Source: Patescibacteria group bacterium (GTDB lineage: Bacteria > Patescibacteriota > Minisyncoccia > UBA6257 > GWB1-50-10). From it: a DNA stretch of 42,968 nucleotides. The notes beneath the pieces are model-generated. The model was not told where the DNA came from. It did not search any database and was given only the letters and a program-made list of their open reading frames with translations. Shown piece by piece: positions 10,691-29,150 of this stretch. Both the position numbers and the translations under genes were made by a program. The stretch lies in contig JAMCYI010000007.1 in NCBI GenBank assembly GCA_023474215.1, positions 1 through 42,968 of the forward strand, in the 5' to 3' direction. Numbering within the stretch: the stretch's first letter is position 1; every line of letters begins with the position of its first letter.

Positions 10691-11245
10691 CTACCCCAGC
10701 TTCCTTGTCCACGCGACAAGCGCTTCGATCATTTCTTTCACCTTGGCCTTCGTCGCTTCGTCTGTGAGGTTGCCACCCGCATCGAATTTGTCCTGGATCA
10801 TCGAGACCATCACCTCGGGTTTATTCAAGGGGTGCATATCGAGAAAAACCATCATCTGGCGCAAGTGATACTGGGCGCGGGAACCGCCCAGCATACCAAC
10901 TGAGCCGCTTATGATGGCCGCGGGCTTGCCAGACCAAGCGCTCTCCCCGTACGGACGGGACCCGCAATCAATGGCGTTTTTGAGGGCGCCCGACACGGAA
11001 TAGTTGTACTCCGGCGTCACAAAAAGCACCGCGTCACTTTCTTTGATTTTCTTCTTGAATTCCTTGACCGCTTCCGGCATATCCATTTCCCAGTCTTGAT
11101 TAAAAAGCGGCAATCCGCCGATGTCGACGATTTCCACTTCCGCGTCCTCAAATTTCATCCCCGCCGCCGCTTTCAGAAGCTTCGTATGAAACGACTCTTT
11201 CCGCAAACTCCCCGAAATACCCACGATCTTTATTTTATCGTTCAT
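10691..11245 (-). CDS. NAD(P)H-dependent FMN reductase (ChrR/SsuE family)
   Basis: GISGSLRKES, VTPEYNYSVSGALKNAID, GGSRAQYHLRQ; start MNDKIK. Confidence 0.93.
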   Translation of the reverse strand: MNDKIKIVGISGSLRKESFHTKLLKAAAGMKFEDAEVEIVDIGGLPLFNQDWEMDMPEAVKEFKKKIKESDAVLFVTPEYNYSVSGALKNAIDCGSRPYGESAWSGKPAAIISGSVGMLGGSRAQYHLRQMMVFLDMHPLNKPEVMVSMIQDKFDAGGNLTDEATKAKVKEMIEALVAWTRKLG

Positions 11246-11249
11246 GCCA

Positions 11250-11558
11250 TTATTTGTTTTTATTTTTCGTATTTGACCTTTGTTTTTTGACATCGCTGAC
11301 CAAGTTCATCAGAAGGTCGAGCGTATATTTGGAATTTAAAGTGTAGAATATCTCCTGGCCGCGCCGCTCGTCGATGACCAGATTGCAGGCCTTCAGAACT
11401 TTCAGATGCTGGGAAACCGCCGGCTGGGAAAGTTTCACGATCCCGACGAGCTCCCCGACGGTCTTCCGGCCCTTCAGAAGCGCTTCGATGATGCGGTAGC
11501 GCGAGGCATTGCCGATGCCCTTGCCGAATTTCTCTATCTCGCTGCACAAATCACTCAT
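11250..11558 (-). CDS. ArsR/SmtB family transcriptional regulator
   Basis: SRYRII..L...TVGEL...LSQPAVSQHLKVLK..NLV..ERRG..IFY. Confidence 0.92.
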   Translation of the reverse strand: MSDLCSEIEKFGKGIGNASRYRIIEALLKGRKTVGELVGIVKLSQPAVSQHLKVLKACNLVIDERRGQEIFYTLNSKYTLDLLMNLVSDVKKQRSNTKNKNK

Positions 11559-11594
11559 ATATAAACATATTAGCATATGCTTATATATTGTCAA
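11557..11594 (-). promoter_or_regulatory. Sigma70 promoter overlapped by a 14-4-14 inverted repeat (probable ArsR operator)
   Basis: TTGACA (11594-11589)-N16-TAATAT with extended TG; IR ATATATAAACATAT / ATATGCTTATATAT. Confidence 0.8.
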
Positions 11595-11602
11595 CCCCAA
11601 CC

Positions 11603-11629
11603 AAAAACCGCCCGGAAAGGACGGTTTTT
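11603..11629 (-). terminator. Rho-independent terminator of zwf-gnd
   Basis: AAAAACCGTCC-TTTCC-GGGCGGTTTTT on the minus strand. Confidence 0.75.
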
Positions 11630-11634
11630 GAATA

Positions 11635-14001
11635 TCAGCGCCTTTTCGGTCCCTTTATGGAATGTCCACCAAATTGATTCCGCAGCATCGAAAGGATCTG
11701 ACCGATGTAACTCGGATGTTTTTCCGATTGGACTCGGAAATCGAACGAATCCTTGATCACTTTGACCGACACGCCGAGTTTCTTCGCCGTCTTCACGGTC
11801 CACTCGCCTTCCCCGGTATGCGCCACGGTTCCCGAAACACCCCTCAAGTCGTCGCCGTACTCCGCAAAACCTGATTTCAGCCAATCAACAAGGCGCGACG
11901 TGATGACGCTCCCGTGGCCGTATACCCGCGCGATCTCCTGTAAATCCAGCGCGAGCTTCGATTTCTTGATGACCGCGAACCCTTCCGCCAGAGCCTGCAT
12001 CATGCCGTACTCGATTCCGTTATGGACCATCTTCACGAAATGCCCCGCGCCATGGCGACCCATATACCCATAGCCATCCTTGAGTGCGAGATCGAAGAAG
12101 AGCGGCTCGAGATAGTCGAAATCTTTCCGATCGCCGCCCACCATGAGGGATGCCCCGTTCAGGGCGCCTCCCGGTCCCCCTGAAACGCCCACATCGATAA
12201 ACCGGATGCCTGCTTTTTGAAGTTTCTTCGCGCGCGTGATTGAATCTTCAAAAAACGAATTGCCCCCGTCAACGATGACATCTCCTTTTTTCAAATATCT
12301 GAGGATCCCCCCACTTCCGAAAATCATTTCATCAACCGTCTTGCCGGCGGGAACCATAAGCCATACGACTTTTGGAGAAGGGAGTTTCGAGACAAGTTCC
12401 TCGATCGAAGAAGCCGCAATAAGGCCTTCCTTTCCCATATTCCTTGCAATTTCGGTCGTCCGGTTCCATACATGGACTTTCCACCCCTTCCCATGCAATT
12501 GCCGTGCGAGCGCGGCGCCCATCTTCCCCAAACCAACAATGCCGATTTCTTTCGGCATGCCGACTGAAACGGCCGGCCCGTCCACAACTTCAGCCTCCTT
12601 TGCAATGCGGCTTGAATCGGGCTCATAACGCATCAAGGGAACTGTCCCCCTTCGCCATCCGGCGATGATCGGATCGATGAATTTCCACATCGCCTTGATT
12701 TCGCCCGATGAAACGAAGAGTGTTTGATCGTCTGAAATGCAATCAAAAAGGAGCTTCTCGTATTCTTCGGTATACTGAGAGTGTTCGCCGCTCCTCCTGA
12801 ATTCGAAACCGAGCGTACGTTTCTCAAGCTCCATCCGGTGCCCCGGCTTTTTAGACCAAAAACATACCGTAATCCCCTCCTTCGGTTCGAGATGGATGGT
12901 AAGTGAATCTTTGTACGGCGTGTCGTTCCTGAAAACGACTTCGATCTCCTTCAGGGGCTTTCCCATCCGCTTTCCGGATTCCAAGGTGATGTCGACACCC
13001 TGCCAGCGGGGATGCATAAGCGCGGCCTTGATCTTGAAATAGGTTTCAGTATCCGAGTCGGTCGTAACGCCCTTGATCGTTCGGTAACCATTGTACTGGG
13101 CGCGGAAAGTTCCTCTTTGAACCTCGCCGGCCGAGGGCGTTTTCAACGTTTCGATGATCCTCGCCCGTTCCCGCCTGATGTCCTCGGCCGAAAACGATGC
13201 CGGCTTTTCCATCGCAATGAGCGCGAGCATTTGAAGCAGATGATTTTGCCCGACGTCCCGGAGGGCCCCCACACCGTCGTAAAACCCTCCCCGCTCTTCG
13301 ACGCCGATCGATTCCCAAAGGCGGATATGAATGCTTTCGATAAGCTCCTTATCCCACGCCGACTCGAAGAGATTGTTCGAGAAACGGAATACCAGGATGT
13401 TTTGAAGCATCTCTTTTGCAAGGTAGTGATCGATCCGGTAAATTTGTTTTTCCTTGAACAGTTTGTCGAGCAGGCCGTCGAGCGCCTTCGCGCTTTTTTC
13501 GTCGCTCCCGAACGGCTTTTCGACAATGACGCGCGTCCACCCTTCGTCGGGCCCGCCGCACGGCTCATTCAGACCCGTTGCCGCAAGATTGTTCAAAATT
13601 TCCGGATACATCCGGGGCGGAACGGCCAAATACAAAAGTTTATTGGAACACATGCCCCATGATTCATCGATCGATTGCAGCGTCTTCGCTAGGGCTTCGA
13701 AGTCTTTCTTGCTCTCGAATGTTCCCCGCTGATACGAATAGAGGGACAGGAAATCCTTAATGATCGTATCACTCTTCTTCACTTTGTGGCGCTTCGCGAG
13801 AACCTCGAATGCCCGATCCCGGAGATCTTGGTCGGTAAGATCGCGCCGCGCAAAACCGACGAGGCGAAACCGTTCGGGAAGCAAACCTTTCTGATAAAGA
13901 TTGAAAAGCGAGGGAACGATCTTTTTCCCCATAAGGTCTCCTGTTGCCCCCAAAACCACGACAATGGTCGGTATTTGCGGCGTCTTCGTTTTCTTTTTCA
14001 T
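11635..14001 (-). CDS. zwf: Fused glucose-6-phosphate dehydrogenase / 6-phosphogluconate dehydrogenase (Zwf-Gnd)
   Basis: GATGDL, EKPFG and RIDHYLAKE (G6PD), then GLGKMG, DGGNS, VSGG, KMVHNGIEY and LRNQFGGH (short YqeC-type 6PGDH) in one ORF. Confidence 0.92.
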   Translation of the reverse strand: MKKKTKTPQIPTIVVVLGATGDLMGKKIVPSLFNLYQKGLLPERFRLVGFARRDLTDQDLRDRAFEVLAKRHKVKKSDTIIKDFLSLYSYQRGTFESKKDFEALAKTLQSIDESWGMCSNKLLYLAVPPRMYPEILNNLAATGLNEPCGGPDEGWTRVIVEKPFGSDEKSAKALDGLLDKLFKEKQIYRIDHYLAKEMLQNILVFRFSNNLFESAWDKELIESIHIRLWESIGVEERGGFYDGVGALRDVGQNHLLQMLALIAMEKPASFSAEDIRRERARIIETLKTPSAGEVQRGTFRAQYNGYRTIKGVTTDSDTETYFKIKAALMHPRWQGVDITLESGKRMGKPLKEIEVVFRNDTPYKDSLTIHLEPKEGITVCFWSKKPGHRMELEKRTLGFEFRRSGEHSQYTEEYEKLLFDCISDDQTLFVSSGEIKAMWKFIDPIIAGWRRGTVPLMRYEPDSSRIAKEAEVVDGPAVSVGMPKEIGIVGLGKMGAALARQLHGKGWKVHVWNRTTEIARNMGKEGLIAASSIEELVSKLPSPKVVWLMVPAGKTVDEMIFGSGGILRYLKKGDVIVDGGNSFFEDSITRAKKLQKAGIRFIDVGVSGGPGGALNGASLMVGGDRKDFDYLEPLFFDLALKDGYGYMGRHGAGHFVKMVHNGIEYGMMQALAEGFAVIKKSKLALDLQEIARVYGHGSVITSRLVDWLKSGFAEYGDDLRGVSGTVAHTGEGEWTVKTAKKLGVSVKVIKDSFDFRVQSEKHPSYIGQILSMLRNQFGGHSIKGPKRR

Positions 14002-15236: not shown

Positions 15237-16760
15237 TCAAGCAAACCCCGGGAAAAAGTCGGATTTCACGTTTTTCTTTTCGACACCCATATCGTGCAGA
15301 ACTTTCTTCACGTGCTCCACCATGGCATTGGTGCCGGAAATATAAAACAATCTCTCCCGATAATCGGGGATGCGCTTTCGGATCATTTCGCCGTCGATGC
15401 GCCCCCGTTCACCTTTCCATCCCGGAGGAGCCTCGCCCGTCAGGGTATAGATCGTCTTCATGCCGAGCGATTGCTCCGCTCCATCAAAAACATCGCGGTA
15501 TGCCAAGTCATCGGCCGTCCGCGCCGAATAAAGGAGAATGATCGGGCGGCGGTCATGCATATCCACGAGATACCGCACCATGCTCCGGATCGGCGTGACG
15601 CCGATGCCGCCCGCGATAAGAACCAACTTTTTCGACTTGTCGCGCGGCAGCGTAAAATCGCCCGAAAGCTGCGATGCGACAATGGTATCACCCTTTTGCA
15701 TGGTACCGAGCGCCTTTTTGAACGAGCTGGGATTCGGGTTGAACCGCACCCCCATCCGCATATCGCGTTCGGTCGGTGACGACGCAATGGTAAAGTAGCG
15801 GCGGTTGCCGCGCGAATCGGGATGCGCGTGCGAAAGCGTCCACTCGAGATACTGCCCCGGCTTGAAGCTCAATTTTTCATCCGTCTTGAAAACGAAATCG
15901 TAAAGATTGGTGCCGATCTTCTTCCGCTCGGCAAGCGTCAGGATCAATTTTTTCTTCGAGCTCACGAGATACGAAAAAACGTTCCCGGCAATGAGTGCAA
16001 GTTCCGGCGAGAAATAAAACGACCCGAGGTGCACTTGCGGCGCAAAGAGGAAGCCGACGAGCATCCCATACATCATCCGAAGATTTTCCGTGGGCGGCGC
16101 CGTGAGGGGCTCCGTGAGCATCACGAACGCGAAGAAAAAGAGCGGCGAATCAAGAAGGGCTTGGGACATGAGCCTTGCGATATCCTGGCCGGCAGCGATC
16201 CCGAGAAACAAGGCGGTAACGAGCGCCGTTGCAAGGAAACTGAAAACTAAATCAGACCGCAGAAGTTTTCTGACCATCAAAATGCCTCCCGCAAGAACAA
16301 ACGGCAAAAGAGATACGGTCCCAACCCACCAGCTCGCCGCTTGATTGATCGTCAAGGCCGTCAGCGCAACGCCGAACGCCGCTGGATTGAACAGGTGTTT
16401 CTTTTTGATCGCAAAAATATACTTCGAAGCCATGGCCCAAATGGAAGCCCACACGGCGATCGAAAAATAAGAAGCGGCATGAGATCCGGAAAAAGGCGTT
16501 ATGATGAGGGTCAAGATGAGCGCGGTAATGTAAACCGACTCGACGTTCGTCTGCGCCCTGAAAACACGCGCAAAAACGGAGTTGGCTATCCAAGAAACGC
16601 CCGTTATAAAGAGAGCTGAAAATAAAAGGCCGACCGGGCTGTAGGGAAGAATGCGGACGGCCGAAAAAACGACGGCGACCAAAAGAAGCCCGAGGAGGTA
16701 GTAAAGCACCACCCGGTACATCGTCGTGTTATTCAAAAATCTATCAATGAAACGCAACAT
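15237..16760 (-). CDS. NqrB/RnfD-like membrane domain fused to a ferredoxin-NADP reductase-type FAD/NAD(P)-binding domain
   Basis: KHLFNPAAFG and MLTEPLTAP (NqrB/RnfD-like), then FKPGQY, RYFTIASSP, IAGGIGVTP and FYISG. Confidence 0.85.
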   Translation of the reverse strand: MLRFIDRFLNNTTMYRVVLYYLLGLLLVAVVFSAVRILPYSPVGLLFSALFITGVSWIANSVFARVFRAQTNVESVYITALILTLIITPFSGSHAASYFSIAVWASIWAMASKYIFAIKKKHLFNPAAFGVALTALTINQAASWWVGTVSLLPFVLAGGILMVRKLLRSDLVFSFLATALVTALFLGIAAGQDIARLMSQALLDSPLFFFAFVMLTEPLTAPPTENLRMMYGMLVGFLFAPQVHLGSFYFSPELALIAGNVFSYLVSSKKKLILTLAERKKIGTNLYDFVFKTDEKLSFKPGQYLEWTLSHAHPDSRGNRRYFTIASSPTERDMRMGVRFNPNPSSFKKALGTMQKGDTIVASQLSGDFTLPRDKSKKLVLIAGGIGVTPIRSMVRYLVDMHDRRPIILLYSARTADDLAYRDVFDGAEQSLGMKTIYTLTGEAPPGWKGERGRIDGEMIRKRIPDYRERLFYISGTNAMVEHVKKVLHDMGVEKKNVKSDFFPGFA

Positions 16761-16774
16761 AAAATTTGATCTTC

Positions 16775-16912
16775 CAACCAATCCATCGTTAAGTCAGCCG
16801 TCTCGCAGGGTGAACGGGCACGGTTCGAGCGAAGCGAGAGAGCGAACCCGAGAGCGAGCCGAATTCCTCGCCGGGGAATTCGATAGCGTGCTGGCGTACG
16901 ATGGATTGGTTG
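16775..16912 (+). repeat. Structured intergenic element, copy 1 (15-bp closing stem, multi-stem core)
   Basis: CAACCAATCCATCGT...ACGATGGATTGGTTG; core homologous to 25018..25160. Confidence 0.8.
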
Positions 16913-16914
16913 AA

Positions 16915-17658
16915 TTAGAGCACATAATTTTCAAAGCCTGAAGTCATGGTTGCAATACCCCATCGATCGATCACATATCCTTCGATGCCCGGTACCTGCT
17001 CGATGAATTGAATGCCGCTTCTTCCCATCGCGAAAGCCGCCGTCGCGAATCGATCCGCTTCGTAAACGTTCGGTCCTACGACGCTCACGCTCACAATATC
17101 GGGATCGGCGGCTTTCCCCGTCTTCGGATTGTAAATATGGTTTCCCCGCTCATACGTCCCTGAAGTGGCGATGCCGCCGTCGGTCAATGCAACCTTCTTT
17201 ACGACCTCGCTGACATTGAAGGGATTTCGGATGCCGATGATCCATCGCTCACCTTTTCCATTGGCGCCGGAAACCTCGATATCCCCCCCTGCATCGACAT
17301 AAAAATTCTTAAAGCCCTTCTTCCTTAAAATGCCGGCGGCCCTCCAAATTGCCCATCCCTTTACCACACCGGAAGGATCGTAAGAACCGCCGGGAGTTTT
17401 TATGTCAAAATAGCCATTCGTCTCGTTCTTCGTTCTTTCGGCAAGATCGAAGATCTCTTTCATATCAGGACTCCACTGCGATCGATCGAGCTCCCCCCGA
17501 TTGATCCTCGTTATTTCGCTCGAACTTTTGAACGTGCTGAAGGTATCGTCAATATACTCAAAGTAAGAAAAAACGTCGTCGATATCGCGGGAATTCGCGC
17601 CGGGATCGGCGATCTCCACGGTGACGGGCATGCCCATCAGTATTTTCGTTTCCTTCAT
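16915..17658 (-). CDS. apbE: FAD:protein FMN transferase (ApbE family)
   Basis: LMGMPV, FSTFKSSSEITRIN, DPSGVVKGWA, DAGGDI, IATSGTYERGNHIYNP, ADRFATA. Confidence 0.9.
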   Translation of the reverse strand: MKETKILMGMPVTVEIADPGANSRDIDDVFSYFEYIDDTFSTFKSSSEITRINRGELDRSQWSPDMKEIFDLAERTKNETNGYFDIKTPGGSYDPSGVVKGWAIWRAAGILRKKGFKNFYVDAGGDIEVSGANGKGERWIIGIRNPFNVSEVVKKVALTDGGIATSGTYERGNHIYNPKTGKAADPDIVSVSVVGPNVYEADRFATAAFAMGRSGIQFIEQVPGIEGYVIDRWGIATMTSGFENYVL

Positions 17659-17706
17659 ATACGTACGCGATTCGATTCGTTTTCGTTTCAAGAACCCAGC
17701 CGGTCT

Positions 17707-18717
17707 TCACAAATAATTCGGCTTGTTGCTGAACGATTCAGCCTGCCGCACGATCTTCGCCATGGCCTTCAGGGCCTGTACCGGGTATTCGCCGGACGCC
17801 GTTTCGTCGGAAAGCATGACCGCATCCGTTCCATCCCAAATCGCATTTGCGATATCGGAAACTTCGGCCCGCGTCGGATGCGCATGATTGACCATCGATG
17901 TCAACATTTGCGTCGCCGTAATGGAAAACTTCCCGTGCCATGCAGCATGGCGGATCAGGTTTTTTTGAATGAACGGCAGTCTTTCTTCCGGCACCTCGAT
18001 GCCCAAATCGCCGCGGGCGATCATGATGCCGTCGGAAGCTTGGATGATCGCATCGATGTTCTTCAAGGCCAGCGCCGTTTCGATCTTTGCAATGATCTTC
18101 GCCCTGCCGCGTATGATCCGCTTCGCTCGGACGATATCATCCGCCGTCTGAACGAACGAAACTGCGACGTAGTCGATCCCTTCCCGAAGACCGAATTTCA
18201 AATCCGCAACATCCTTCTTGGTAAGGCCGGCAGCGGAAAGTTTCGTATCCGGAACGTTGACGGCTTTCCGGGAATACAGCACCCCTCCCCGCACGACACT
18301 GGCGAAGATCTTCCGATCCTTGACCCTGAGAGTCTTCAGTTCCATGTCGCCGTTCGAAAGAAAGATCGAATCCCCCTTCTTGATCTCAAGATGAAGCCGC
18401 GGGCTGTCGACGAAAATGGCATCCCGGTCGAGAGCGTTGGTCGAAAAAACGATCGTACTTCCCTCTTCCAGTTTTATGCCCTCGGAAGGCAGTTTGCCGA
18501 CCCTGATGCGGGGCCCTTGAAGGTCCTGCAGCACCCGGATCTCTCTTCTGCATTTTTTAGCCGCCCACAGTAGCGTTTTTTTGACTTCTTTCAGCTCCTC
18601 ATGGGTGCAATGGGAAAAATTCAGCCGAGCGATATCCATCCCCGCTTCCCCGAGTTTCACGACGGTATCGCGGCCCTCCGAAACCGGACCCAATGTCGCT
18701 ATGATCTTCGTTCTCAT
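17707..18717 (-). CDS. pyk: Pyruvate kinase lacking the C-terminal regulatory domain
   Basis: RTKIIATLGP, RLNFSH, DLQGP, AKIE, ARGDLGIE, ATQML, PTRAEVSD, MLSDETASGEYP; stops soon after the A domain. Confidence 0.92.
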   Translation of the reverse strand: MRTKIIATLGPVSEGRDTVVKLGEAGMDIARLNFSHCTHEELKEVKKTLLWAAKKCRREIRVLQDLQGPRIRVGKLPSEGIKLEEGSTIVFSTNALDRDAIFVDSPRLHLEIKKGDSIFLSNGDMELKTLRVKDRKIFASVVRGGVLYSRKAVNVPDTKLSAAGLTKKDVADLKFGLREGIDYVAVSFVQTADDIVRAKRIIRGRAKIIAKIETALALKNIDAIIQASDGIMIARGDLGIEVPEERLPFIQKNLIRHAAWHGKFSITATQMLTSMVNHAHPTRAEVSDIANAIWDGTDAVMLSDETASGEYPVQALKAMAKIVRQAESFSNKPNYL

Positions 18718-18741
18718 ACTCCTCATGATATACTGGAAGTT

Positions 18742-19113
18742 ATGGAAAGTGAATTGCGGTTTTGCCCTCATTGCGGGGCAGGCGTGACCCCCGATGCGAT
18801 CTTTTGTTCACACTGCGGCAAGCCGCTCGAAGAACCGAAACTCTCGACATCGATCGGAAAACAGATCCTCATTTACTTCGTGAGCCTTTTTTTGCCGCCG
18901 TTCGGCCTCGCATGGACATTCAAGTACCTCCGCCAACAAAATAAAACGGCGAGGACTGTCGGCCTCGTCTCGCTTATCCTCACCATCGTCGGCATCATCG
19001 GGACCGTTTGGATCACGATGGGTCTCCTCAACAATTTAAGTTCTTCCTTGAATTCTTCCCTCGGCGGTTCAATCAACGACTCCCAACTAAACCAGTTTCT
19101 CCAAAACTACTAG
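18742..19113 (+). CDS. Zinc-ribbon membrane protein
   Basis: FCPHCG...FCSHCG followed by two TM helices; TATACT 7 nt upstream of ATG. Confidence 0.8.
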   Translation: MESELRFCPHCGAGVTPDAIFCSHCGKPLEEPKLSTSIGKQILIYFVSLFLPPFGLAWTFKYLRQQNKTARTVGLVSLILTIVGIIGTVWITMGLLNNLSSSLNSSLGGSINDSQLNQFLQNY

Positions 19114-20207
19114 ATCTCCTTGAAATGCTTTGAGAGTTTCGCGTTGGATTGCGCGGTATAATTCGACGTGCCGATGGAGTCATAAATGACCTCGGGAATC
19201 TCCGTCAAATATTCGAATTTCACTTTTGCGATCGCTTGCTTATTCCGGATGATCATATCCTCGAACGGCCTCACCTCCAAGGTCGCCGGACGTCCCTTTG
19301 CTTCGCCGTTTTTGCCGTATCCCCATCCCGGGTCGAAAAAGCCGGCATAGTGCGATCGGAATTCGCCGCTTCGTTCATCCATCGGCGCAACTTCAAGCGC
19401 CATTGAAGGCGGCACTCGGACAGCTTCCTTCGTCGAAAGGATATAAAACCCGCCTTTTTTCAAGGAAATGCTTTCTTCTTCTTTTTTTACTTCGCGGAAA
19501 AAGTCATCGGGATGGTAGAACTTCCGCTTCGAAAAATCCATCACCTTGTTCGACCCCAAACATTCAAAGCCAACGACATCTTGATCGAGATCCAGCCTTA
19601 AAATGACCGATCCGTCGCCGTCCTTTATCTTTATGTCTTCGTAGCGGATCGGCTCGCCGTGACTGTCAAAAACAAGGGATTCCTTGCTCATAACTTCCTC
19701 CAATTCCTGCTCGGAAAGCCGCGTATCACGATTGAAAAAACGGCCTTGGGTCAACCGTTCACCGGGAGAAACCTTCACGGGGTATGAGCGGGGGTTCACT
19801 GCAAGCCAAAGCGTCCCGCGGTATCCGCGCGGGATCGTATCGTAACGGGAAACGCCGTCCGCGAGGACGCGGACATGGACATCGTTCCGCCCCGTCGAAC
19901 TTTTCGGATTGCAGTAGCCGTAAATGTCCGGCGGCAGAGCGATAACCTCATTGAGGCGCGCAAGATACGTGACGTCGCGCTCGAGCGGATTTTCGAACGT
20001 GTGCTTCGAATGCTCGGCTTTTTCCAAAAGCTCCGCCACCTTTTCCCCCGGCCGCGGGAGAAAAATCCCTTCCACTCGGTATATTTCTTCGGAGAGGGAA
20101 AAATCGAGCGAGGCCGGATTGACGTTTTCCTCTTTTGCGTTCTTGAACGTGCCGTCCGCGATGAACGCTTTGATGCTTTGATAAGGCAGCGCTCCCAGTT
20201 TATCCAT
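19110..20207 (-). CDS. dcd: dCTP deaminase (long two-domain DCD type)
   Basis: NPASLD, NPKSSTGRND, GEFRSHYAGFFDPGWG, LEVRP, SNY..Q..KLSKHF. Confidence 0.9.
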   Translation of the reverse strand: MDKLGALPYQSIKAFIADGTFKNAKEENVNPASLDFSLSEEIYRVEGIFLPRPGEKVAELLEKAEHSKHTFENPLERDVTYLARLNEVIALPPDIYGYCNPKSSTGRNDVHVRVLADGVSRYDTIPRGYRGTLWLAVNPRSYPVKVSPGERLTQGRFFNRDTRLSEQELEEVMSKESLVFDSHGEPIRYEDIKIKDGDGSVILRLDLDQDVVGFECLGSNKVMDFSKRKFYHPDDFFREVKKEEESISLKKGGFYILSTKEAVRVPPSMALEVAPMDERSGEFRSHYAGFFDPGWGYGKNGEAKGRPATLEVRPFEDMIIRNKQAIAKVKFEYLTEIPEVIYDSIGTSNYTAQSNAKLSKHFKEI

Positions 20208-20589
20208 TTGAAAAGGGTTCGATGAGCTTGTGCTTTTTGACTTCGGTTATTTTATTTTTGTCGTCGACGAATACGACGACCGGTTCGATGTGTTCCATTT
20301 CCTCCGGTTCCACCCATGCTTCCGCAAGAATGATCACCTTATCCCCCGGCTGAAAGATCCTCGCTGGCGGCCCATTGAGGCAAATATCTCCCTTCCCTCG
20401 ATCGCCTGCTATCGCATACGTTCTCCACAAAGACCCGTTCGAACAATTGGTTATTTGGAGGATTTGGTACGGCTTGATGTGCGCCGCGTCCATAAGATCT
20501 TGGTCGATGGTAATGGAGCCGACATAGTTCAAGTCGGCCTCGGTGACCGTCGCCCGGTGTATTTTCGACGTGCAAATGGTTATTTTCAT
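20200..20589 (-). CDS. panD: Aspartate 1-decarboxylase (pyruvoyl-dependent)
   Basis: SKIHRATVTEADLNYVG/SITID self-cleavage site, TYAI, ICLNG, GDKVII. Confidence 0.92.
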   Translation of the reverse strand: MKITICTSKIHRATVTEADLNYVGSITIDQDLMDAAHIKPYQILQITNCSNGSLWRTYAIAGDRGKGDICLNGPPARIFQPGDKVIILAEAWVEPEEMEHIEPVVVFVDDKNKITEVKKHKLIEPFSNG

Positions 20590-20599
20590 CGTGATTTCA

Positions 20600-20669
20600 G
20601 TATACCTCCACACCTGACGGCGGACAATCCCATCGCCATGCACATCCACTGCTAGGTGTGGGGGTATAC
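20600..20669. other. Long intergenic stem-loop upstream of panD
   Basis: GTATACCTCCACACCT...AGGTGTGGGGGTATAC, 16-bp stem with one G-T. Confidence 0.7.
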
Positions 20670-20677
20670 CTCCGGCC

Positions 20678-21319
20678 TTATTCCAGTTCAATCTTGAAAT
20701 CCGAAGGGGTTCCTCCGCAATACTTTTGGAAACTTTCCCATGATGCCTCTTCGACAACGGCCCGGCTCTTTTTGCCGCTCTTCGAGATCATATCTCCGAA
20801 TGAACTGCAAAAGGATATGGCGTCGATCTTCACATTTTTCTTCTTGGCGCTCGTAAAAGCTTCATTGACCTCCGTCTTGAAATCGTCGTCCAAAGTCTTC
20901 ACGATTTGATTTTTCTTCGTCGAGGAAGCGGCCGAAGAAACCTCTTCAATTTCCTCCAAACGCCGCTCGGCAAACTCACGATGGAGATACGGTTTGCTCC
21001 CCGAAGAAGCGAAGGTGAGCGTAATGTCTTCCCCGAGCCGCTTCAAAGGATATAAAGGATGGGTCGGCGGAACATTTTGGGCGTCGGCGTAAGCGACCAA
21101 TCCCCCGCCGAGTCCCACAATGATCGCAAAGGTTACGGAATATTTGAGCATCCAGCCGAATCTTTTCCTTACGGGAACAGCAATGCCCTTCGTGCCGGAA
21201 ATGCGCGAAAGAAAATCGGCTTTGGCGGCTTCCAGAAACGCAGGATCCGGCGAAAATTTCTTCCGGAGAAGCTTCTTTATTTTCCGCGTATGGACGTGAT
21301 GCTGGATGAATTTAATCAT
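20678..21319 (-). CDS. DUF5667-type membrane-anchored protein, probable anti-sigma factor
   Basis: One TM helix, then A..VPPTHPLYPLKRLGE...AERRLEE; overlaps the ECF sigma gene. Confidence 0.7.
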   Translation of the reverse strand: MIKFIQHHVHTRKIKKLLRKKFSPDPAFLEAAKADFLSRISGTKGIAVPVRKRFGWMLKYSVTFAIIVGLGGGLVAYADAQNVPPTHPLYPLKRLGEDITLTFASSGSKPYLHREFAERRLEEIEEVSSAASSTKKNQIVKTLDDDFKTEVNEAFTSAKKKNVKIDAISFCSSFGDMISKSGKKSRAVVEEASWESFQKYCGGTPSDFKIELE

Positions 21320-21857
21320 GATAAAGATTTTTGATTTTTTTGATCAGGCGATGAGCGGCAACGCGAAGCGAGACTTCGGTTTTCCCCAAGGCAGCCGACA
21401 TTTCCCGGTATGACAATCCTTCAATGTATCTCATGAGAAAAATGTCCTGGTCTTCTTCTGAGAATTCTTTGACTTTGTTCAAGATTTCCGAGACGAATTC
21501 CTTGGTATCCAAAGACTCATCGATCGCAAACTCATCCTCTTCGACGTCCTCGATCCCGGAAAGCGATACGTTCTTCCGCTCCCGGAAGTAGTCGTTCAAG
21601 GTATTTCGCGCAATCTGCCAAAACCAAGGCGTGAAATTTCCGACCGAAGGGTTGAACGTTTCGATCCTCCCGACCAATTTGACGAAGACTTCCTGAACCA
21701 GATCTTCGGCAACGCCTTTTATGCCGGTCCGCTGCAGGAAAAAACCAAAGAAAAGCGGGGCGAATTTTTCGAAAATGGCCGCACCCGCCCGCTCATCGCC
21801 ATCCTTGAGCCGCACCGCCAATGCATTCCAATCCTCTGGTGTGGAAGTTTTTCTCAT
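21312..21857 (-). CDS. ECF RNA polymerase sigma factor
   Basis: AEDLVQEVF, FTPWFWQIARNTLNDYFR, EGLSYREMSAALGK..SLRV..HR. Confidence 0.92.
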   Translation of the reverse strand: MRKTSTPEDWNALAVRLKDGDERAGAAIFEKFAPLFFGFFLQRTGIKGVAEDLVQEVFVKLVGRIETFNPSVGNFTPWFWQIARNTLNDYFRERKNVSLSGIEDVEEDEFAIDESLDTKEFVSEILNKVKEFSEEDQDIFLMRYIEGLSYREMSAALGKTEVSLRVAAHRLIKKIKNLYHD

Positions 21858-21861
21858 ATAA

Positions 21862-21889
21862 TATACGGGACGTTTTGTCAATTGTTACA
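21862..21889 (-). promoter_or_regulatory. Putative ECF-dependent autoregulatory promoter
   Basis: TGTAAC-N16-CGTATA directly before the sigma ATG; matches the AAC/CGT ECF consensus. Confidence 0.65.
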
Positions 21890-22790
21890 CGTTCAGGTAG
21901 CGTCTCGTTGCAACGATGCTCGAGACAACTCCCAATCCAATTCCAAAAAGTGCCTGGTACAAAAACAAAATGAGAAAATTGCCGGCAAAGTAAGAACTCA
22001 AGTTCACCTCCGGAATGAAACTATTCACGTGGGGAGATATGAACGTGATGACGGGGATCATAACGAGAAAGCTCACGAACGCCGCAATGAGTCCGTACAT
22101 GGCCCCTTCGATGAGATACGGGCCGCTGATGAATTTGTTGGATGCCCCCACGAGGCGCATGATGCCGATTTGATCTTTGTTCGAAAAGATCGCAAGGCGA
22201 ATGGTATTGAACGTCACCGCAGCCGCGAGGAACGCCAGAAACACCGTAAGGACGAAACCTCCGGTCGTAAAATTGTCGACCAACGATACCAAACGGTTGA
22301 TGACCACTTGGTTTTGGGCGTAATTGATCTTGTAGATGATATTCTGGAAGTCCGGCTTTTCGAGATACGCGGCGATCGTGTCGTAATGGTGGATATCCTT
22401 CGCCTTGATGTCGAGCGAAGGAAGAAGCGGATTGGAGCCGAGGGTATCGAGCGTCTTCGTGATCGCTTGATCGCCCGCATGGAGCGCTTTGAAGTTGGCA
22501 AGCGCTTGCTCTTCGGAAACGTAGGTCACATACTGCACTTCGTTCAATCCTTCAAGCGACTGTTTCAAGTTCAAAATGGTATCTTCTGGCACATTGCTCT
22601 GGAAATAAACCGTGATATCAACCTTGTCCTGAATGGTTTGAATGGCACCTTGAGAAATGATGTTGAAAAGTATGAGCCCTTCGAAGACGATAAGCGCGAG
22701 GATCATGATGGCGATCGTCGAAAAAGAGAGCCACCCATCCCTCAAAAAACTCTGAACGCCGTATTTAAAAATCCTGAATAAATTGATCAT
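21885..22790 (-). CDS. ftsX: Cell division permease FtsX
   Basis: TM + extracytoplasmic domain, NPL, NTIRLAI, IMRLVGAS..FI..PY.IEG. Confidence 0.93.
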   Translation of the reverse strand: MINLFRIFKYGVQSFLRDGWLSFSTIAIMILALIVFEGLILFNIISQGAIQTIQDKVDITVYFQSNVPEDTILNLKQSLEGLNEVQYVTYVSEEQALANFKALHAGDQAITKTLDTLGSNPLLPSLDIKAKDIHHYDTIAAYLEKPDFQNIIYKINYAQNQVVINRLVSLVDNFTTGGFVLTVFLAFLAAAVTFNTIRLAIFSNKDQIGIMRLVGASNKFISGPYLIEGAMYGLIAAFVSFLVMIPVITFISPHVNSFIPEVNLSSYFAGNFLILFLYQALFGIGLGVVSSIVATRRYLNV

Positions 22791-22797
22791 CTTTTTC

Positions 22798-23481
22798 TTA
22801 ATCTATTATAAATCTTCCGTGGGCCTCGTCTTTTATAACCTCCCCCTTTTCGAGCGTGATCACCCGCTCCCCGAGCGCATTCACGATCTCCTTGTCATGC
22901 GTTGCAAGGATCACGACGCTCCCCAACTCATTGATCTTCTTCAAAAGCTTGATGACCTCCCACGTATTGAAGGGGTCCAAGTTGCCGGTCGGTTCGTCCG
23001 CAACGAGAACGTCCGGTTGGTTGATCATTGCCCGGGCGATCGCGACCCGCTGTTTTTCTCCGCCCGAGAGCTCGGCTGGAAAATTCTGCGCCTTATCCTT
23101 CAAACCGACCATATCCAAAACTTGCGGGACCAGTTCATTGATATCGCGCTGCGGCCTCCCTTCAACCTCCAAGGCGAACGCAACGTTCTCAAAAGCGGTC
23201 TTCTTGGGCAGGAGACGGAAATCTTGGAAGATGACGCCGATATGCCTTCTGAACTCCGGCAACTCCGACGGCTTCAGCTTGTTCACTTCATACGAACCGA
23301 AGAAGATCTGCCCTTTGGTTGGTTTTTCTTCGCCGGTAAGGAGTTTGATGATGGTCGATTTCCCCGCGCCGGATCGGCCGACGAGCGATACGAATTCGTT
23401 CGGCTGTATCTTGAAGCCCACCTTGTCGAGCGCAACTGTTCCATGGTTGTACGTTTTCGTTACGTTTTGAAACGTGATCAT
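22798..23481 (-). CDS. ftsE: Cell division ATP-binding protein FtsE
   Basis: GRSGAGKST, VIFQDFRLL, LSGGEKQR, ADEPTGNLD; adjacent to ftsX. Confidence 0.95.
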   Translation of the reverse strand: MITFQNVTKTYNHGTVALDKVGFKIQPNEFVSLVGRSGAGKSTIIKLLTGEEKPTKGQIFFGSYEVNKLKPSELPEFRRHIGVIFQDFRLLPKKTAFENVAFALEVEGRPQRDINELVPQVLDMVGLKDKAQNFPAELSGGEKQRVAIARAMINQPDVLVADEPTGNLDPFNTWEVIKLLKKINELGSVVILATHDKEIVNALGERVITLEKGEVIKDEAHGRFIID

Positions 23482-23561
23482 GATAATAAAAAGCTCTAAG
23501 CTTCCGCTTTTAGCCTCACGTGGTGATTATAGAACATATCCCCTCTTGAAACAACCAGTTA

Positions 23562-23700
23562 CCTAAAAACTCTAAATCCTAAGCACTAAATCCTAAACAA
23601 CGAACGAAATCAAAAATCACAATGACCAAAACGTGTTTAGCACTTTGGATTTGGAACATTGGAATTTATTTAGGATTTAAGATTTTGAATTTAGGATTTC
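23562..23700 (-). repeat. Heptamer-periodic palindromic repeat, copy A
   Basis: (AAATCCT)n-like arm and (AGGATTT)n-like arm; reverse-complement homolog of 32866..33003. Confidence 0.85.
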
Positions 23701-24401
23701 AGATCTTGCTTGATAAGGTCGAGGTTTCCCTCTAAAACCTCCTCCACTTTCGTGATCTTGAGTCCCGTTCGATGATCTTTCACTTGCTTGTACGGGTGGA
23801 GGACGTATGAACGGATCTCATGCCCCCATTCCGGTTCCACCCTGACACGCAAATTGGCGACTTCCTTTTCGTGTTTTTCTTCCATGATTTTCACGAGCTT
23901 CGATTTCAAAAGCATCATTGCCTTTTCGCGATTTTGGCTTTGCGACCGCTCACTTTGAGAAGAAACCGCAATGCCGGTCGGCACGTGCACAATGCGGACG
24001 GCCGTCTCCACCTTGTTGACATTCTGTCCCCCAGGGCCGGAAGACCGGGCAAATTCAATCTTCAGATCTTTCTCCGGGATCACGAGGTCGTCGGCGCCGA
24101 CCCTCCGGAACGCCGGGACGGCTTCGACGAGAGCGAACGACGTATGGCGCAGTTTCTTGGCGTCAAAGGGCGAAATGCGGACCAGCCGGTGTACGCCCGA
24201 CTCATCCTTCAGAAGGTCGTAGACATCTTTTCCCCTGACCTCTAAAGTGTTGTCGTTCACGAAAGAATATTTCAATCCTTTCCGGTCGGAATATTTCTTG
24301 TACATAAGAAGAAGCATCCGCGCCCAGTCCTTGGCGTCTTCTCCTCCTGCACCGGCAAAAACGGAGAGGTAAACCGTATTGGTATCGAAATGCGAATCCA
24401 T
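23691..24401 (-). CDS. prfB: Peptide chain release factor 2, N-terminally truncated (~236 aa)
   Basis: GAGGEDAKDWA, ESGVHRLVRISPF (RF2 SPF motif), RHTSFA, GPGGQNVNK, IRSYVLHPY. Confidence 0.88.
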   Translation of the reverse strand: MDSHFDTNTVYLSVFAGAGGEDAKDWARMLLLMYKKYSDRKGLKYSFVNDNTLEVRGKDVYDLLKDESGVHRLVRISPFDAKKLRHTSFALVEAVPAFRRVGADDLVIPEKDLKIEFARSSGPGGQNVNKVETAVRIVHVPTGIAVSSQSERSQSQNREKAMMLLKSKLVKIMEEKHEKEVANLRVRVEPEWGHEIRSYVLHPYKQVKDHRTGLKITKVEEVLEGNLDLIKQDLKS

Positions 24402-24476
24402 GGAGCCAATGGTCGGATTTGAACCGACGACCCACGCTTTACGAAAGCGTTGCTCTACCAGCTGAGCTACATTGGC
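24401..24476 (-). tRNA. tRNA-Thr (anticodon CGU), CCA encoded
   Basis: GCCAATG/CATTGGC acceptor stem, D-arm AGCTCAGCTGGTAGAGC, anticodon arm ACGCT-TTCGTAA-AGCGT, T-loop GGTTCAAATCC. Confidence 0.96.
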
Positions 24477-24482
24477 AAAATA

Positions 24483-24831
24483 GGCAAGCCGTAAGCGGGA
24501 TTCTGTGTCGCCCGCGAATCCGCGGGCTAGCGACAATCTGTCTGGGCCCTCGATCGCTCTCGGGCTCTGGCGGCGCTTCCGCCTCATGGGCGGACACGGC
24601 CTTGCATCCCGTAAGGATTTAGCCGTTTCACCTCCGCTTTTTTGTCCCTATGGCGGAGTTGAGCCAACGAGCTTGGGATTGGGCTCCTCCGGGCTTTTCA
24701 ACCCGAAGCGTCACTGCTCGCACCTCTATCCTTTCGGACGACGGCTGTTAGCCGCTACGTTTAGCCCCTATGGGCTGGATGTCCCGACTTTCCTCCCCGA
24801 TCTTGCGACCGGAGCTGTCGCCTGGCTTGCC
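24483..24831 (-). ncRNA. rnpB: RNase P RNA
   Basis: P1 GGCAAGCC/GGCTTGCC; GAGGAAAGTCGGG ... ACAGAATCCCGCTTA P4 pairing; GGTGAAACGG and GCAAG conserved regions. Confidence 0.93.
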
Positions 24832-25017: not shown

Positions 25018-25160
25018 AAGTGTGAGTACTCTTTGAGCAAACCGTTGCGGAGTCCGAGCGGGCACGGGTTCCGCCGGAGGCGGAAGAGCGAGGACGAGCA
25101 CGAGCGCGCATTCCACGCCGGGGAATGCGACGCGTGTTTGCAAAGAGAGTACTCACACTT
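25018..25160 (+). repeat. Structured intergenic element, copy 2
   Basis: AAGTGTGAGTACTCT...AGAGTACTCACACTT closing stem; core homologous to 16775..16912. Confidence 0.8.
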
Positions 25161-25164
25161 ACGC

Positions 25165-29073: not shown

Positions 29074-29150
29074 GCAACGAATATCCCCTCGCTCAGGCTG
29101 TCTCCGGGGCGACGCCCAAGTCTTAGCCTTCGCGAAGGAATATTCGTTGC
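29074..29150 (-). other. Long intergenic stem-loop after dnaE
   Basis: Minus strand GCAACGAATATTCCTTCGC-GA-AGGCT...AGCCT-GA-GCGAGGGGATATTCGTTGC, with G-T pairs and a tandem GA loop. Confidence 0.7.

Follow-up and report, generated by a model that had tools for sequence, protein, structure and literature searches.

Probable REP- or MITE-like hairpin repeats with copy-specific closing stems and a conserved three-way-junction core, widespread in Patescibacteria

We suggest, with a probability of roughly two in three, that two structured elements in a 42,968-nt stretch of DNA from a Patescibacteria group bacterium (the window) are members of a hitherto undescribed hairpin-repeat family, interspersed and non-coding, that is of the REP or MITE kind and widespread in Patescibacteria. 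A sequence-only reading had taken the element for a pair of copies; it is instead a large dispersed family, here called family A, with 18 strong copies in the 704-kb source genome (G000). More than 100 copies have been gathered from several classes of the phylum, and the family has no coding capacity. Each unit consists of a near-perfect closing stem of 15-25 bp (P0), whose sequence is specific to its locus, around a core of ~106 nt that forms a three-way junction, in which P1 closes two arms, P2-P3-P4 and P5. That the element is undescribed is upheld in that it matches no Rfam family and that full-text literature searches aimed at it found no description. The features of the window referred to below are as follows.

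15237..16760, - strand: NQR2/RnfD-like plus NAD-binding oxidoreductase gene, downstream of copy 1
16775..16912, + strand: family-A hairpin, copy 1, entire element with core and private stem; R1 covariance model 112.7 bits for 16792-16896
16775-16789, + strand: copy 1 P0, 5' arm, CAACCAATCCATCGT; pairs with 16898-16912 over 15 bp
16792-16896, + strand: copy 1 conserved core, three-way junction; the column pairs with the highest mutual information are the core helices
16793-16798/16890-16895, + strand: copy 1 P1
16799-16800 plus 16802-16804, paired with 16852-16856, + strand: copy 1 P2
16808-16811/16846-16849, + strand: copy 1 P3
~16824-16840, + strand: copy 1 P4 hairpin, with GCGAAGC at 16829-16835
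16860-16867/16875-16882, + strand: copy 1 P5, loop TCGCCGG
16898-16912, + strand: copy 1 P0, 3' arm; ends 2 nt short of the ApbE stop codon (16915-16917, - strand)
16915..17691, - strand: ApbE-family flavin transferase gene (PF02424, 151.7 bits); stop codon abuts copy 1
25018..25160, + strand: family-A hairpin, copy 2, whole unit; R1 model 108.4 bits for 25036-25142
25018-25034, + strand: copy 2 P0, 5' arm; pairs with 25144-25160 over 17 bp
25144-25160, + strand: copy 2 P0, 3' arm; ends 4 nt short of the RNase HII stop codon
25165..25764, - strand: RNase HII gene (PF01351, 108.2 bits); stop codon abuts copy 2
29093..29131, - strand: family C core, 39 nt, identical in 11 of 12 genome copies; has a private closing stem

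The cores of copies 1 and 2 align at 78% column identity, and the two units have the same architecture with unrelated closing stems (15 bp in copy 1, 17 bp in copy 2), as the sequence-only reading had described. All four paired changes that it listed are seen (GTCAGC/GCTGGC vs GCAAAC/GTTTGC; CTC/GAG vs TGC/GCA; GGGT/ACCC vs GTCC/GGAC; CGAATTCC/GGAATTCG vs CGCATTCC/GGAATGCG), as are the conserved junction strings and the apical loops GCGAAGC and C-GGA-G. When folded as RNA, the + strand reaches -67.8 kcal/mol for copy 1 (z -5.47) and -77.7 kcal/mol for copy 2 (z -7.27), and no shuffle folds as well as either copy (0/200); DNA parameters give z-scores of -5.08 and -6.70, respectively. The claim that both copies fold best antisense to the flanking genes holds for the energies, which are lower on the antisense strand in both (+ vs -: -67.8 vs -58.2 for copy 1, -77.7 vs -70.6 for copy 2), but not for the z-scores of copy 2, which are similar on both strands (-7.27 on + vs -7.54 on -). 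With filters off, the covariance model finds only copies 1 and 2 in the whole window, and the next match scores 11.3 bits.

In the source genome the covariance model gives 18 matches at 75.6-117.8 bits, and 33 at E<=1. Family A was matched in 21 of the 41 genomes of the order sample (8/8 other members of the genus, 15/24 of the taxonomic family), and in 8 of 150 other genomes sampled from the phylum. A core pattern of 26 letters, with 21 fixed bases and one Y, was run over genome records and hit 63 stretches; 44 pattern loci were searched with the covariance model, resulting in 42 matches at 37.6-123.6 bits, while the pattern had 0 matches in viral contigs. Full-scoring copies also occur in records that their submitters titled Actinomycetota, Saganbacteria, and Delta- and Gammaproteobacteria, at loci of 37-53% G+C. 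Pattern matches in Phycicoccus elongatus and in a Micrococcales record are considered chance hits, as they lie in coding-like DNA of 68% G+C and have no model match. Many family-A copies are found at contig ends, and the family breaks assemblies.

The search of the genome and its relatives thus produced the further homologs on which the earlier claim depended, and these show strong covariation. In an alignment of 61 distinct copies (A4), 93.6% of the pair cells are paired, against 73.2% after shuffling and 33-43% after sliding, with double changes in 28 of 34 pairs; none of 500 shuffles was as high, for all five measures. A separate alignment of 42 copies found by the pattern in other genome records (A6) behaves in the same way, with 93.7% of cells paired against 79.5% in shuffles, and double changes in 26 of 34 pairs (0/500 shuffles). 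The pairs with the strongest mutual information coincide with the predicted helices, and the inner AAAC/GTTT helix is the only conserved helix toward the ends of the unit. Pair cells of the core contain 131 G.U against 34 A.C, with the G.U concentrated at few fixed positions, one pair being G.U in 29 copies and G-C in 28. As the core tolerates G.U far more than A.C, it is the fold of one particular strand that is conserved. Selection on folding, which had been proposed from two copies, is therefore strengthened by strong covariation in two separate alignments, and judged from these alignments it is the fold of one strand that is under selection.

A functional RNA would likewise give strong strand-specific covariation, and to that extent this result weighs against the repeat reading. 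Family A might then represent functional structured RNAs, either a processed small RNA that a double-strand-specific RNase cuts out of the long stem, or an element that acts in cis at the 3' end or as antisense; as part of the same reading, the junction nucleotides are candidates for binding a protein or ligand, with dispersal being secondary. We consider this unlikely on the whole. It is favored by covariation in every helix in both sets, by the few fixed G.U positions on one strand, and by the unpaired junction strings, which are highly conserved across classes of the phylum; a comparable long-stem insertion within a 23S rRNA gene also speaks for it. Against it, no pseudoknot or tertiary covariation was found in the family-A alignment, and GNA triloops with a closing C-G pair form the apical loops. 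Such loops, which had been pointed out as mini-hairpins in the two copies, prove to be a constant feature at the apex across the family alignment; they are typical of very stable DNA mini-hairpins, not of RNA tetraloops. Neither is there a sigma-70-like promoter beside copy 1 or copy 2, and no RNA run is listed as containing the stretch 16300-17300.

The Rfam results point the same way. Rfam 15 includes the hammerhead, twister, pistol, hatchet and HDV-like ribozymes, riboswitches, 6S and Y RNA, and membership requires a score at or above the family gathering score; at this threshold only a tRNA was found in the whole window, while twelve other copy-bearing loci likewise gave a tRNA and nothing else. 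At E<=10, the best matches around both copies are RtT with 15.3 bits (cut-off 45) and HgcF with 13.5 bits (cut-off 70). That family A is a self-cleaving ribozyme travelling on a mobile element, which would fit the compact multi-helix junction with its invariant unpaired nucleotides and the multi-copy occurrence known for many small ribozymes, is very hard to reconcile with the failure to match any Rfam ribozyme even at E<=10, with the absence of pseudoknot covariation, and with most of the carrier genomes examined having no reverse transcriptase; we regard it as highly improbable.

The closing stems behave very differently from the core. No match of >=15 nt between outer arms of non-orthologous family-A copies was found in G000 or in the closely similar genome G007, and the P0 arm of copy 1 matches G000 elsewhere over >=15 nt at its partner arm alone. 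Had a copy-and-paste element been active in recent times, non-orthologous pairs of copies with a common stem would be expected, and the lack of such pairs in G000/G007 argues against the repeat reading. Related stems were seen in two G021 paralogues (14/18, differences all transitions), and seven family-A copies within a 265-nt TIR element have one common P0. With symmetric scoring, P0 contains 28 G.U and 18 A.C (p = 0.18); this lack of significant strand asymmetry in the outer stem is a further point against the repeat reading. An apparent asymmetry of 70 G.U against 18 A.C was a product of scoring that favors G.U, and was gone once scoring was symmetric.

Several possible sources or uses of the stems found no support. 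A role of P0 as guides to the own genome is not supported, as arms of >=13 nt have no perfect matches of >=15 nt in G000/G007 beyond their own arms or the orthologous site; the exceptions, a single perfect match of 15 nt and three of 16 nt that have one mismatch, are off-site, and we take them as chance. Copying of stems from nearby flanks, considered for family C only, did not rise above the null: within 200 nt the longest words in common measure 4-8 nt, a value that the null reaches in 12-100% of trials. An origin of P0 from pre-existing terminator hairpins is disfavored, as the simple long hairpins of the genome have an A-tract/GC-stem make-up that is unlike P0.

Comparison of orthologous sites reveals what had been proposed as the behavior of a mobile unit: in addition to the many copies, there is presence and absence, inversion, replacement and nesting. 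At the copy-1 site, G007 has the same element, while G008 and G003 precisely lack the whole hairpin, providing the empty orthologous site that the sequence-only reading had asked to be looked for. G005 has another hairpin at this site, and in G001, G002 and G006 a family-A element is present whose core is inverted; the P0 arm of G002 is 11/15 like that of G000. Copy 2 is identical in G007, and at its site six members of the genus each have a different family right after the RNase HII stop codon. Between G000 and G007, different families occupy nine sites with flanks that are mostly 93-99% identical (85% in one case), and 42 indels of 60-600 nt are found genome-wide. Nesting is seen where family B occupies the P4 position of family A, and exchange of cores at C9:30208 and C9:33199, which have an identical 116-nt core in unrelated stems. 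In G000 C8:5345-5614, P0 is the same as in the G007 orthologue while the interior differs and carries family B; a G007 copy from a different locus shares 93% identity with this interior. No clear direct repeat indicative of a target-site duplication is present at the only empty sites available, one of family A (G008/G003) and one of family E, both of which may be secondary deletions. Contigs assembled from four DNA runs over 16000-26000 break inside the repeat, and show no inversion or excision at the elements.

That copies are dispensable, being precisely absent or swapped for unrelated families in close relatives, speaks against a functional RNA, while the cores kept at old orthologous sites speak for it. 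A purely selfish, decaying repeat should not keep old cores so well; this good preservation, together with the near-identity of the family C core, suggests either function at each locus or very efficient gene conversion.

Family A is not alone in its host. Structured hairpin repeats of at least ten families occur in the source genome, and they turn over faster than the surrounding genes. Family G, found in the same genomes as family A, is a classical MITE with conserved TIR and a 4-7-bp TSD. The 23S rRNA gene of G000 contains a 283-nt long-stem insertion that is absent from G007.

Copies of family A sit directly 3' of the stop codons of unrelated genes; as the core ends ~20 nt from the stop of the neighboring gene, P0 begins 0-5 nt past the stop. 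This constant location would suit a functional RNA, but the orientation relative to genes does not: it flips at an orthologous site, and outside G000/G007 there are 6 copies antisense to both neighbors and 7 sense to both. In G000 itself, 11 copies are antisense to both neighbors and 1 is sense to both, and among all 63 distinct copies the ratio is 25 to 10, an excess driven by G000 and its near twin; the gene calls rest on codon scores trained on G000 and lose reliability in distant genomes. Antisense orientation was therefore rejected as a family rule and is considered a G000 feature, also in view of the inverted core in three members of the genus at the copy-1 site. An intrinsic terminator would have a T run after its G+C-rich hairpin on the transcribed strand; a scan for terminator-like sites at copies 1 and 2 found none, with loops limited to 3-8 nt, so that a giant hairpin would escape it. 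The flank 5' of P0 is only mildly A-rich, position -1 being A in 35 of 55 copies.

The sequence-only reading had also offered an HUH/RAYT substrate as an alternative, and this specific link is not supported. According to this view, family A would be a REPIN-like substrate of RAYT-like Y1 HUH proteins that folds as ssDNA at the replication fork and is cut and rejoined. G000 does have two RAYT-like Y1 ORFs, C16:46048-46806 and C16:66303-67073 (252 and 256 aa), which have HUH-type and Y-type motifs and score 31.6 and 25.4 bits with PF01797 (cut-off 23), although they stay under the cut-off of 80 for NCBIfam REP_Tyr_transpos (37.1 and 33.8 bits). Their genes are flanked by other sequence-conserved palindromes, namely family K and a CTTACGAAGT palindrome, and not by family A; no family-A copy adjoins a Y1 gene among the genomes compared by position, the closest being 3.5 kb away in G023. 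Y1 matches co-occur with family A in the order sample (13 of the 21 carriers of family A, 4 of the other 20 genomes), but not in the phylum sample (4/8 with, 66/142 without), and G069 and G173, both 100% complete, have 8 and 11 copies, respectively, and no Y1 match. The target duplications not seen at empty sites would be in line with such a mechanism, as would the scarcity of other enzymes: reverse transcriptase (PF00078) is absent from four of the five element-rich genomes, G000, G007, G002 (80% complete) and G008 (85% complete), with two in G006, and an association with TnpA Y1/TnpB as in IS200/IS605-derived elements is not seen, the TnpB domain being absent from all five (0/5). The reverse-transcriptase result also speaks against a retroelement-derived repeat such as a retron, a group II intron or a SINE-like element. 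On the other hand, stems of family A are not conserved as REP stems are. The G-rich strand is usually read from GC skew as the lagging-strand template, and the folded strand is more often on the C-rich than on the G-rich strand (15 of 25 copies), without reaching significance. We thus believe that family A is most improbably a substrate of the RAYT-like proteins. One Xer-like tyrosine recombinase gene (PF00589) is present per genome, and it must be counted against the repeat reading that no transposase among Y1, reverse transcriptase, TnpB and integrase is tied to family A.

How the repeats might be maintained can be outlined on the basis of these comparisons. We infer that the entire hairpin is what spreads, or did so in the past, and that the core is kept alike by gene conversion combined with constraint on the single-stranded form, which could be ssDNA exposed in replication or repair, or RNA from the + strand. 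P0, by this scheme, would need only to pair, and would drift by compensatory change because nothing else is required of the stem. The effect on the host would likely be of the REP/BIME type, with a large hairpin standing at the gene's 3' end.

A bolder idea is that families A, B and C and their sisters represent a new class of hairpin cassettes, where every installation of a core would come with a closing stem that is newly made or brought in from outside, and which would then persist behind genes as single-strand structures of use to the host. The stem could arise through fold-back synthesis, with one arm serving as template for the other, or cells could take up finished hairpins from their neighbors. 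Such a scheme would explain why identical cores are seen in unrelated stems, why recent arrivals have stems that are unique in the genome, and why conserved ends, target duplications and a linked transposase are lacking; we nevertheless hold it to be doubtful. If stems are indeed made or imported at insertion, small DNA would have a new means of spreading, and if the fold acts as RNA, it would be among the most widespread unassigned RNA motifs of the phylum. Patescibacteria genomes are very small and tightly packed, and yet the source genome bears at least ten such hairpin-repeat families. Family A marks a permissive spot behind stop codons, and provides an example of dispersed repeats that evolve in concert within a minimal genome.

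Among known systems, bacterial MITEs resemble family A in that they are non-coding, intergenic hairpins of 100-200 nt with insertion polymorphism between close strains and some compensatory changes; Correia/NEMIS, ERIC and the bcr1-type repeats of the Bacillus cereus group are MITEs with conserved RNA-type folds. Family A is likewise short, non-coding, multi-copy and polymorphic between relatives, but MITEs have conserved TIRs and target-site duplications, while the outermost inverted repeat of family A is its variable part, with no conserved terminal inverted repeats among the copies in G000 and G007. The attC sites are also imperfect palindromes that differ from copy to copy, are conserved in structure and not in sequence, and recombine as one folded strand. 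They have conserved outer R''/R' boxes and a variable centre, and form an array beside an integron integrase; in family A, by contrast, the centre is conserved and the outside variable, and copies are single, with no cassette arrays. By analogy, the T-shaped terminal hairpins of parvovirus-type ssDNA replicons are similar in size (~140 nt), in the long stem closing two arms and in the flip/flop interior, although these are genome termini and replication origins for an HUH Rep, whereas family A is chromosomal, internal and dispersed. Small dispersed repeats of cyanobacteria are reportedly nested in hairpins (Elhai et al. 2008 are said to describe this). Fungal double-hairpin elements and the RNase III-excised 23S IVS occupy tolerated sites in rRNA genes, as does the 283-nt insertion of G000, and in organelles the sponge mitochondrial RHE, in the available text of PMC2800124, are small hairpin repeats that invade intergenic DNA, with no enzyme known to move them; both groups occur in other hosts and have other sequences.

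Family A also resembles the REP/BIME/REPIN systems, which, in the available parts of PMC3733652, PMC6006769 and PMC3116915, are interspersed extragenic palindromes, mostly behind coding regions of co-directional or convergent genes, are thought to fold single-stranded, and occur as several families together with RAYT-like genes per genome. REPs are described in the accessible text of PMC3733652 as 20-40 bp long, with a single 8-9-bp stem that is conserved within a family, a 4-5-nt loop, and an unpaired GTAG or CGTC tag at one hairpin foot. In family A, CGTC (within CCGTCTCG) is found in 8 of 11 aligned copies, with CGTT in two and TGTC in one; the tetranucleotide is placed at the core's 5' foot, with part of it paired in P2, and may be a coincidence. 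Unlike REPINs, family A neither flanks RAYT-like genes nor is co-distributed with them, and compared to REPs it is larger (~140 nt) and more elaborate, with five helices, a core built as a three-way junction and a stem that varies from copy to copy. Such copy-specific stems are at odds with the usual MITE or REPIN models.

Both copies in the window are long hairpins in which an outer stem closes a core of ~106 nt, and the sequence agrees with the earlier, sequence-only reading in their coordinates, their unrelated closing stems and their common architecture. The outer stems of copies 1 and 2 are unrelated, and the cores share 78% column identity in a pairwise alignment. RNAalifold predicts a three-way junction from 11 full, well-aligned copies of the source genome (G000), with core helices P1 to P5.

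Window 16775-16912, + strand: family-A copy 1, long hairpin with a 15-bp outer stem closing the core
Window 25018-25160, + strand: family-A copy 2, long hairpin with a 17-bp outer stem closing the core
P1, AAAC/GTTT: closes the core
P2, CG.CTC/GAGCG: first helix of one arm (P2-P3-P4)
P3, 4 bp: same arm as P2 and P4
P4, hairpin with a GNA triloop closed by C-G: arm P2-P3-P4
P5, 8-10 bp, loop YCGCYGG: forms the other arm

The paired differences described in four helices were all found, along with the conserved junction strings, and the GCGAAGC and C-GGA-G apical loops are present. Folded as RNA, the + strand reaches -67.8 kcal/mol for copy 1 (z -5.47) and -77.7 kcal/mol for copy 2 (z -7.27), equalled in each case by 0 of 200 shuffles; the - strand reaches -58.2 and -70.6 kcal/mol, and this ranking is unchanged with DNA folding parameters. 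A separate 13-bp perfect hairpin (CCCGAGAATAGTG ... CACTATTCTCGGG) at window 24953-24984, 34 nt upstream of copy 2, is part of the spacer that separates this copy from a tRNA.

R1, a covariance model of the core (106 positions, 34 pairs), matches copies 1 and 2 and nothing else in the window, while in G000 (704 kb, 16 contigs, 92.7% complete), whose contig C7 is the window, it gives 18 matches of 75.6-117.8 bits and 33 at E<=1; a similarity search with the core finds 13 places at E<1e-3. The two copies are real but not a pair: the R1 counts in G000 and its relatives place them in a large family, here family A. Further homologues were found in 21 of 41 genomes of an order sample (8 of 8 other genus members, 15 of 24 members of the same taxonomic family, and 5 of the 16 other families, each represented by one genome) and in 8 of 150 others sampled from the phylum. 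A 26-letter core pattern (21 fixed bases and one Y) occurs exactly 63 times in one-genome-per-species records; R1, run on 44 of these 63 loci (further contigs of represented records and one duplicate record were omitted), matched 42, at 37.6-123.6 bits. By submitter title, these records are Saccharibacteria, Jorgensenbacteria, Wolfebacteria, Azambacteria, Minisyncoccia, Parcubacteria and Patescibacteria group MAGs, with further ones that are Saganbacteria, Actinomycetota, Delta- and Gammaproteobacteria MAGs by title alone. Two pattern matches in actinobacterial DNA of 68% G+C were set aside as chance. Rfam at gathering thresholds recognizes only tRNA in the window, leaving family A unmatched, and the best scores around both copies at E<=10 were 15.3 bits (cut-off 45) and 13.5 bits (cut-off 70); the suggestion that the element is undescribed thus holds against Rfam. 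Searches of main texts in the literature turned up no account of elements of this sort in Patescibacteria.

Selection on folding, proposed from the two copies, is borne out by covariation in two alignments. In A4 (61 distinct copies), 93.6% of cells hold standard pairs, compared to 73.2% after shuffling and 33-43% with partners slid; both-side changes occur in 28 of 34 pairs, and 0 of 500 shuffles match the observed value on any of five measures. In A6, built from 42 other copies found by pattern and kept outside model building, 93.7% are paired versus 79.5% when shuffled, with both-side changes in 26 of 34 pairs and 0 of 500 shuffles matching, although the counts for A4 and A6 lean towards structure since both were fitted to R1. 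The control with slid partners and the RNAalifold prediction, which is independent, speak for a genuine signal. The top mutual-information column pairs are the predicted helices, and no pseudoknot appears among them; the P5 variants form a limited number of linked haplotypes, so that independent events are fewer than the cell counts suggest. Family A is a real, well-supported, undescribed structured repeat family.

On the model strand (the + strand of the window), core G.U cells outnumber A.C cells by 131 to 34, with ~80 of the 131 at five positions (one P5 pair, one pair at the base of P4 and three within P4), so it is one strand's fold that is preserved. In the outer stem, symmetric scoring gives G.U 28 vs A.C 18 (p = 0.18), indicating a stem equally good on both strands; a larger excess of 70 vs 18 was withdrawn, as its scoring scheme favoured G.U.

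A one-stranded fold brings up the main rival reading, that family A would be a functional RNA, which from the sequence we consider improbable. No promoter-like or terminator-like sites were found at copy 1 or copy 2. Copy 1 is bordered by an ApbE gene and an RnfD/NQR2-like oxidoreductase gene, both on the - strand, and copy 2 follows the stop of the RNase HII gene, also on the - strand, at a distance of 4 nt. Across copies, where a core end faces the 3' end of a gene, ~20 nt usually separate it from the stop codon, so the outer stem begins 0-5 nt after this codon; the neighboring genes (alaS, tRNAs, others) are unrelated to one another. The copies had been said to fold best antisense to their flanking genes. 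This stands for the two window copies, where the + strand energy is lower and the flanking genes are on the - strand, but it does not extend beyond G000 and its near twin G007: in the other genomes both-antisense and both-sense copies number 6 and 7. Using codon-score gene calls trained on G000, 63 distinct copies divide into 25 both-antisense, 10 both-sense, 11 convergent, 5 divergent and 12 undetermined, and G000 alone has 11 both-antisense vs 1 both-sense. The folded strand is the C-rich strand in 15 of 25 G000 copies, which is not significant.

We suggest instead, with a probability of roughly two in three, that family A is mobile-type DNA with a single-strand fold under selection. At the copy-1 site, G007 (96% identical) has the same element; in G001, G002 and G006 the site holds family A with an inverted core, with arms 11/15 identical to G000 in G002 and partly similar in G001; G005 has a 21-bp hairpin of another family. 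A search for empty orthologous sites found this site empty in G008 and G003, where the flanks abut and the entire hairpin including its stem is gone, though this empty site, like one of another family (E), may be a secondary deletion. The comparison indicates that the element is old there, was precisely lost in some lineages, and had its core flipped between the arms. The copy-2 site is identical in G007; in G008, G003, G005, G002 and G001 the RNase HII stop is immediately followed by hairpins of other families, which have stems of their own.

Comparing G000 with nearly all of G007 (656 kb), we found nine sites with family A in one genome and a different family or interior in the other, within flanks that are mostly 93-99% identical (one 85%). 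Over the whole genomes, 42 indels measure 60-600 nt, and the majority are hairpin repeats, which belong to at least ten families. One of these is a classical MITE whose ends are conserved (CCCCCACACYTA...) and whose target duplications appear to be 4-7 bp long; G007 carries insertions of it that G000 lacks:

G007 L075:4979-5104: MITE insertion, matching G000 C2:26895
G007 L087:15632-15761: MITE insertion, matching window ~35684
G007 L112:11724-11778: MITE insertion, matching G000 C10:3590

The 23S rRNA gene of G000 has a 283-nt insertion with a very long stem (C16:8733-9017) that the G007 gene lacks, window 11238-11651 is 412 nt in G000 vs 27 nt in G007, and a tRNA-like gene of G007 (L074:2885-3024, versus G000 C4:12910) has a 138-nt insertion, itself tRNA-like and closed by a long stem.

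Cores also move between stems. Copy 1 and C13:87270 combine cores of 96% identity with unrelated stems, C9:30208 and C9:33199 share an identical 116-nt core within unrelated stems, and orthologous copies with the same stem can differ in their interior. In G000 C8:5345-5614, family B replaces the short P4 hairpin of the G007 orthologue, and this interior matches a copy elsewhere in G007 at 93% identity; C8:1854 behaves likewise. We take such movement to be the product of gene conversion between dispersed copies, which explains why core similarity does not date them. Family B (core TCGGAACCRGGCGTTC...GCCGCCCTGCGCTCTCGG...CCGAGAGCTTC, own private stem) is also found by itself at sites occupied in G000 by family A, and is nested at the P4 hairpin position of family A at four G000 places:

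C8:1754-1906
C8:5400-5549
C13:80905-81033
C2:42175-42308

A new copy inherits its stem. Nested elements retain theirs, as family B does inside family A; the stems of orthologous copies have persisted within the genus, accompanied by compensatory changes; and two paralogues in another sampled genome (G021) have a related stem (14/18, all four differences transitions) and ~25 nt of flank in common. One stem is common to seven family-A copies found within a ~265-nt repeat that is bounded by terminal inverted repeats of 11 bp (ACTTTTGCGTT / AACGCAAAAGT), a conventional MITE with family A as passenger:

L155, L156, L160, L187, L189, L199, L200: the seven copies, in one MAG titled Actinomycetota, loci 45-53% G+C

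Among non-orthologous copies, no stem sharing was found in G000 or G007, and at several sites where these genomes differ, the stems of the incoming elements are absent elsewhere in either. A sister family sharpens this problem of copy-specific stems:

Window 29093-29131, - strand: family C core, 39 nt; also at 11 other G000 places

This core has AAAAGCGAGC at one edge and GCGAGC at the opposite edge, and does not vary among 11 of the 12 copies in G000. Every copy nevertheless has private 11-14-bp arms, which have only a loose pattern in common and show no relation to the adjacent 200 nt. Family-A outer stems are alike in make-up, with a 5' arm purine-rich at its outer end and T-rich at its inner end, unlike the A-tract/GC-stem terminator hairpins of G000. 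Such stems could have three origins: whole hairpins may be taken up from other cells, one arm may be synthesized on its partner during insertion, or the element may enter hairpins that escaped notice, the last being conceivable since both empty sites may be secondary deletions.

The proposed HUH/RAYT link is not supported: the RAYT-like genes are flanked by other palindromes, and there is no co-distribution in the phylum sample. G000 has two such genes:

C16:46048-46806, - strand: RAYT-like Y1 HUH gene, paralogue of C16:66303-67073
C16:66303-67073, + strand: RAYT-like Y1 HUH gene, paralogue of C16:46048-46806

They encode 252 and 256 aa and score 31.6 and 25.4 bits with Pfam Y1_Tnp (cut-off 23), and 37.1 and 33.8 bits with NCBIfam REP_Tyr_transpos (cut-off 80). 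Both are flanked by sequence-conserved palindromes: a family-K palindrome (GGCCCCCCGCTCTCCT type, at least 10 genome copies) 57 nt upstream of the first, and a CTTACGAAGT...ACTTCGTAAG palindrome before the start, within the coding sequence and across the stop codon of the second. Y1 genes occur in 13 of 21 order-sample genomes with family A vs 4 of 20 without, and in 4 of 8 vs 66 of 142 in the phylum sample, counts from related, non-independent genomes that make no proper test; two complete genomes with 8 and 11 family-A copies have no Y1 gene. Reverse transcriptases are absent from G000, G007, G002 and G008 (G006 has two), and a TnpB domain from all five genomes. G000, G007 and G002 each have one Xer-like tyrosine recombinase, with a second PF00589 match in G006 and G008.

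By position, size class, multiplicity and turnover, all shared with REP/BIME/REPIN and MITE elements, family A is an interspersed palindromic repeat of their kind. It nonetheless lacks their defining features: the conserved stem or terminal repeat, the RAYT link, and the target duplication, none of which was seen, though both empty sites may be secondary deletions. It also lacks the tag-plus-short-hairpin form of the REP criteria, as set out in PMC3733652. The copy-specific closing stems are its unusual feature and merit follow-up. Integron attC sites resemble family A in having a conserved shape that is read on one strand, but in family A the conserved and variable parts are swapped.
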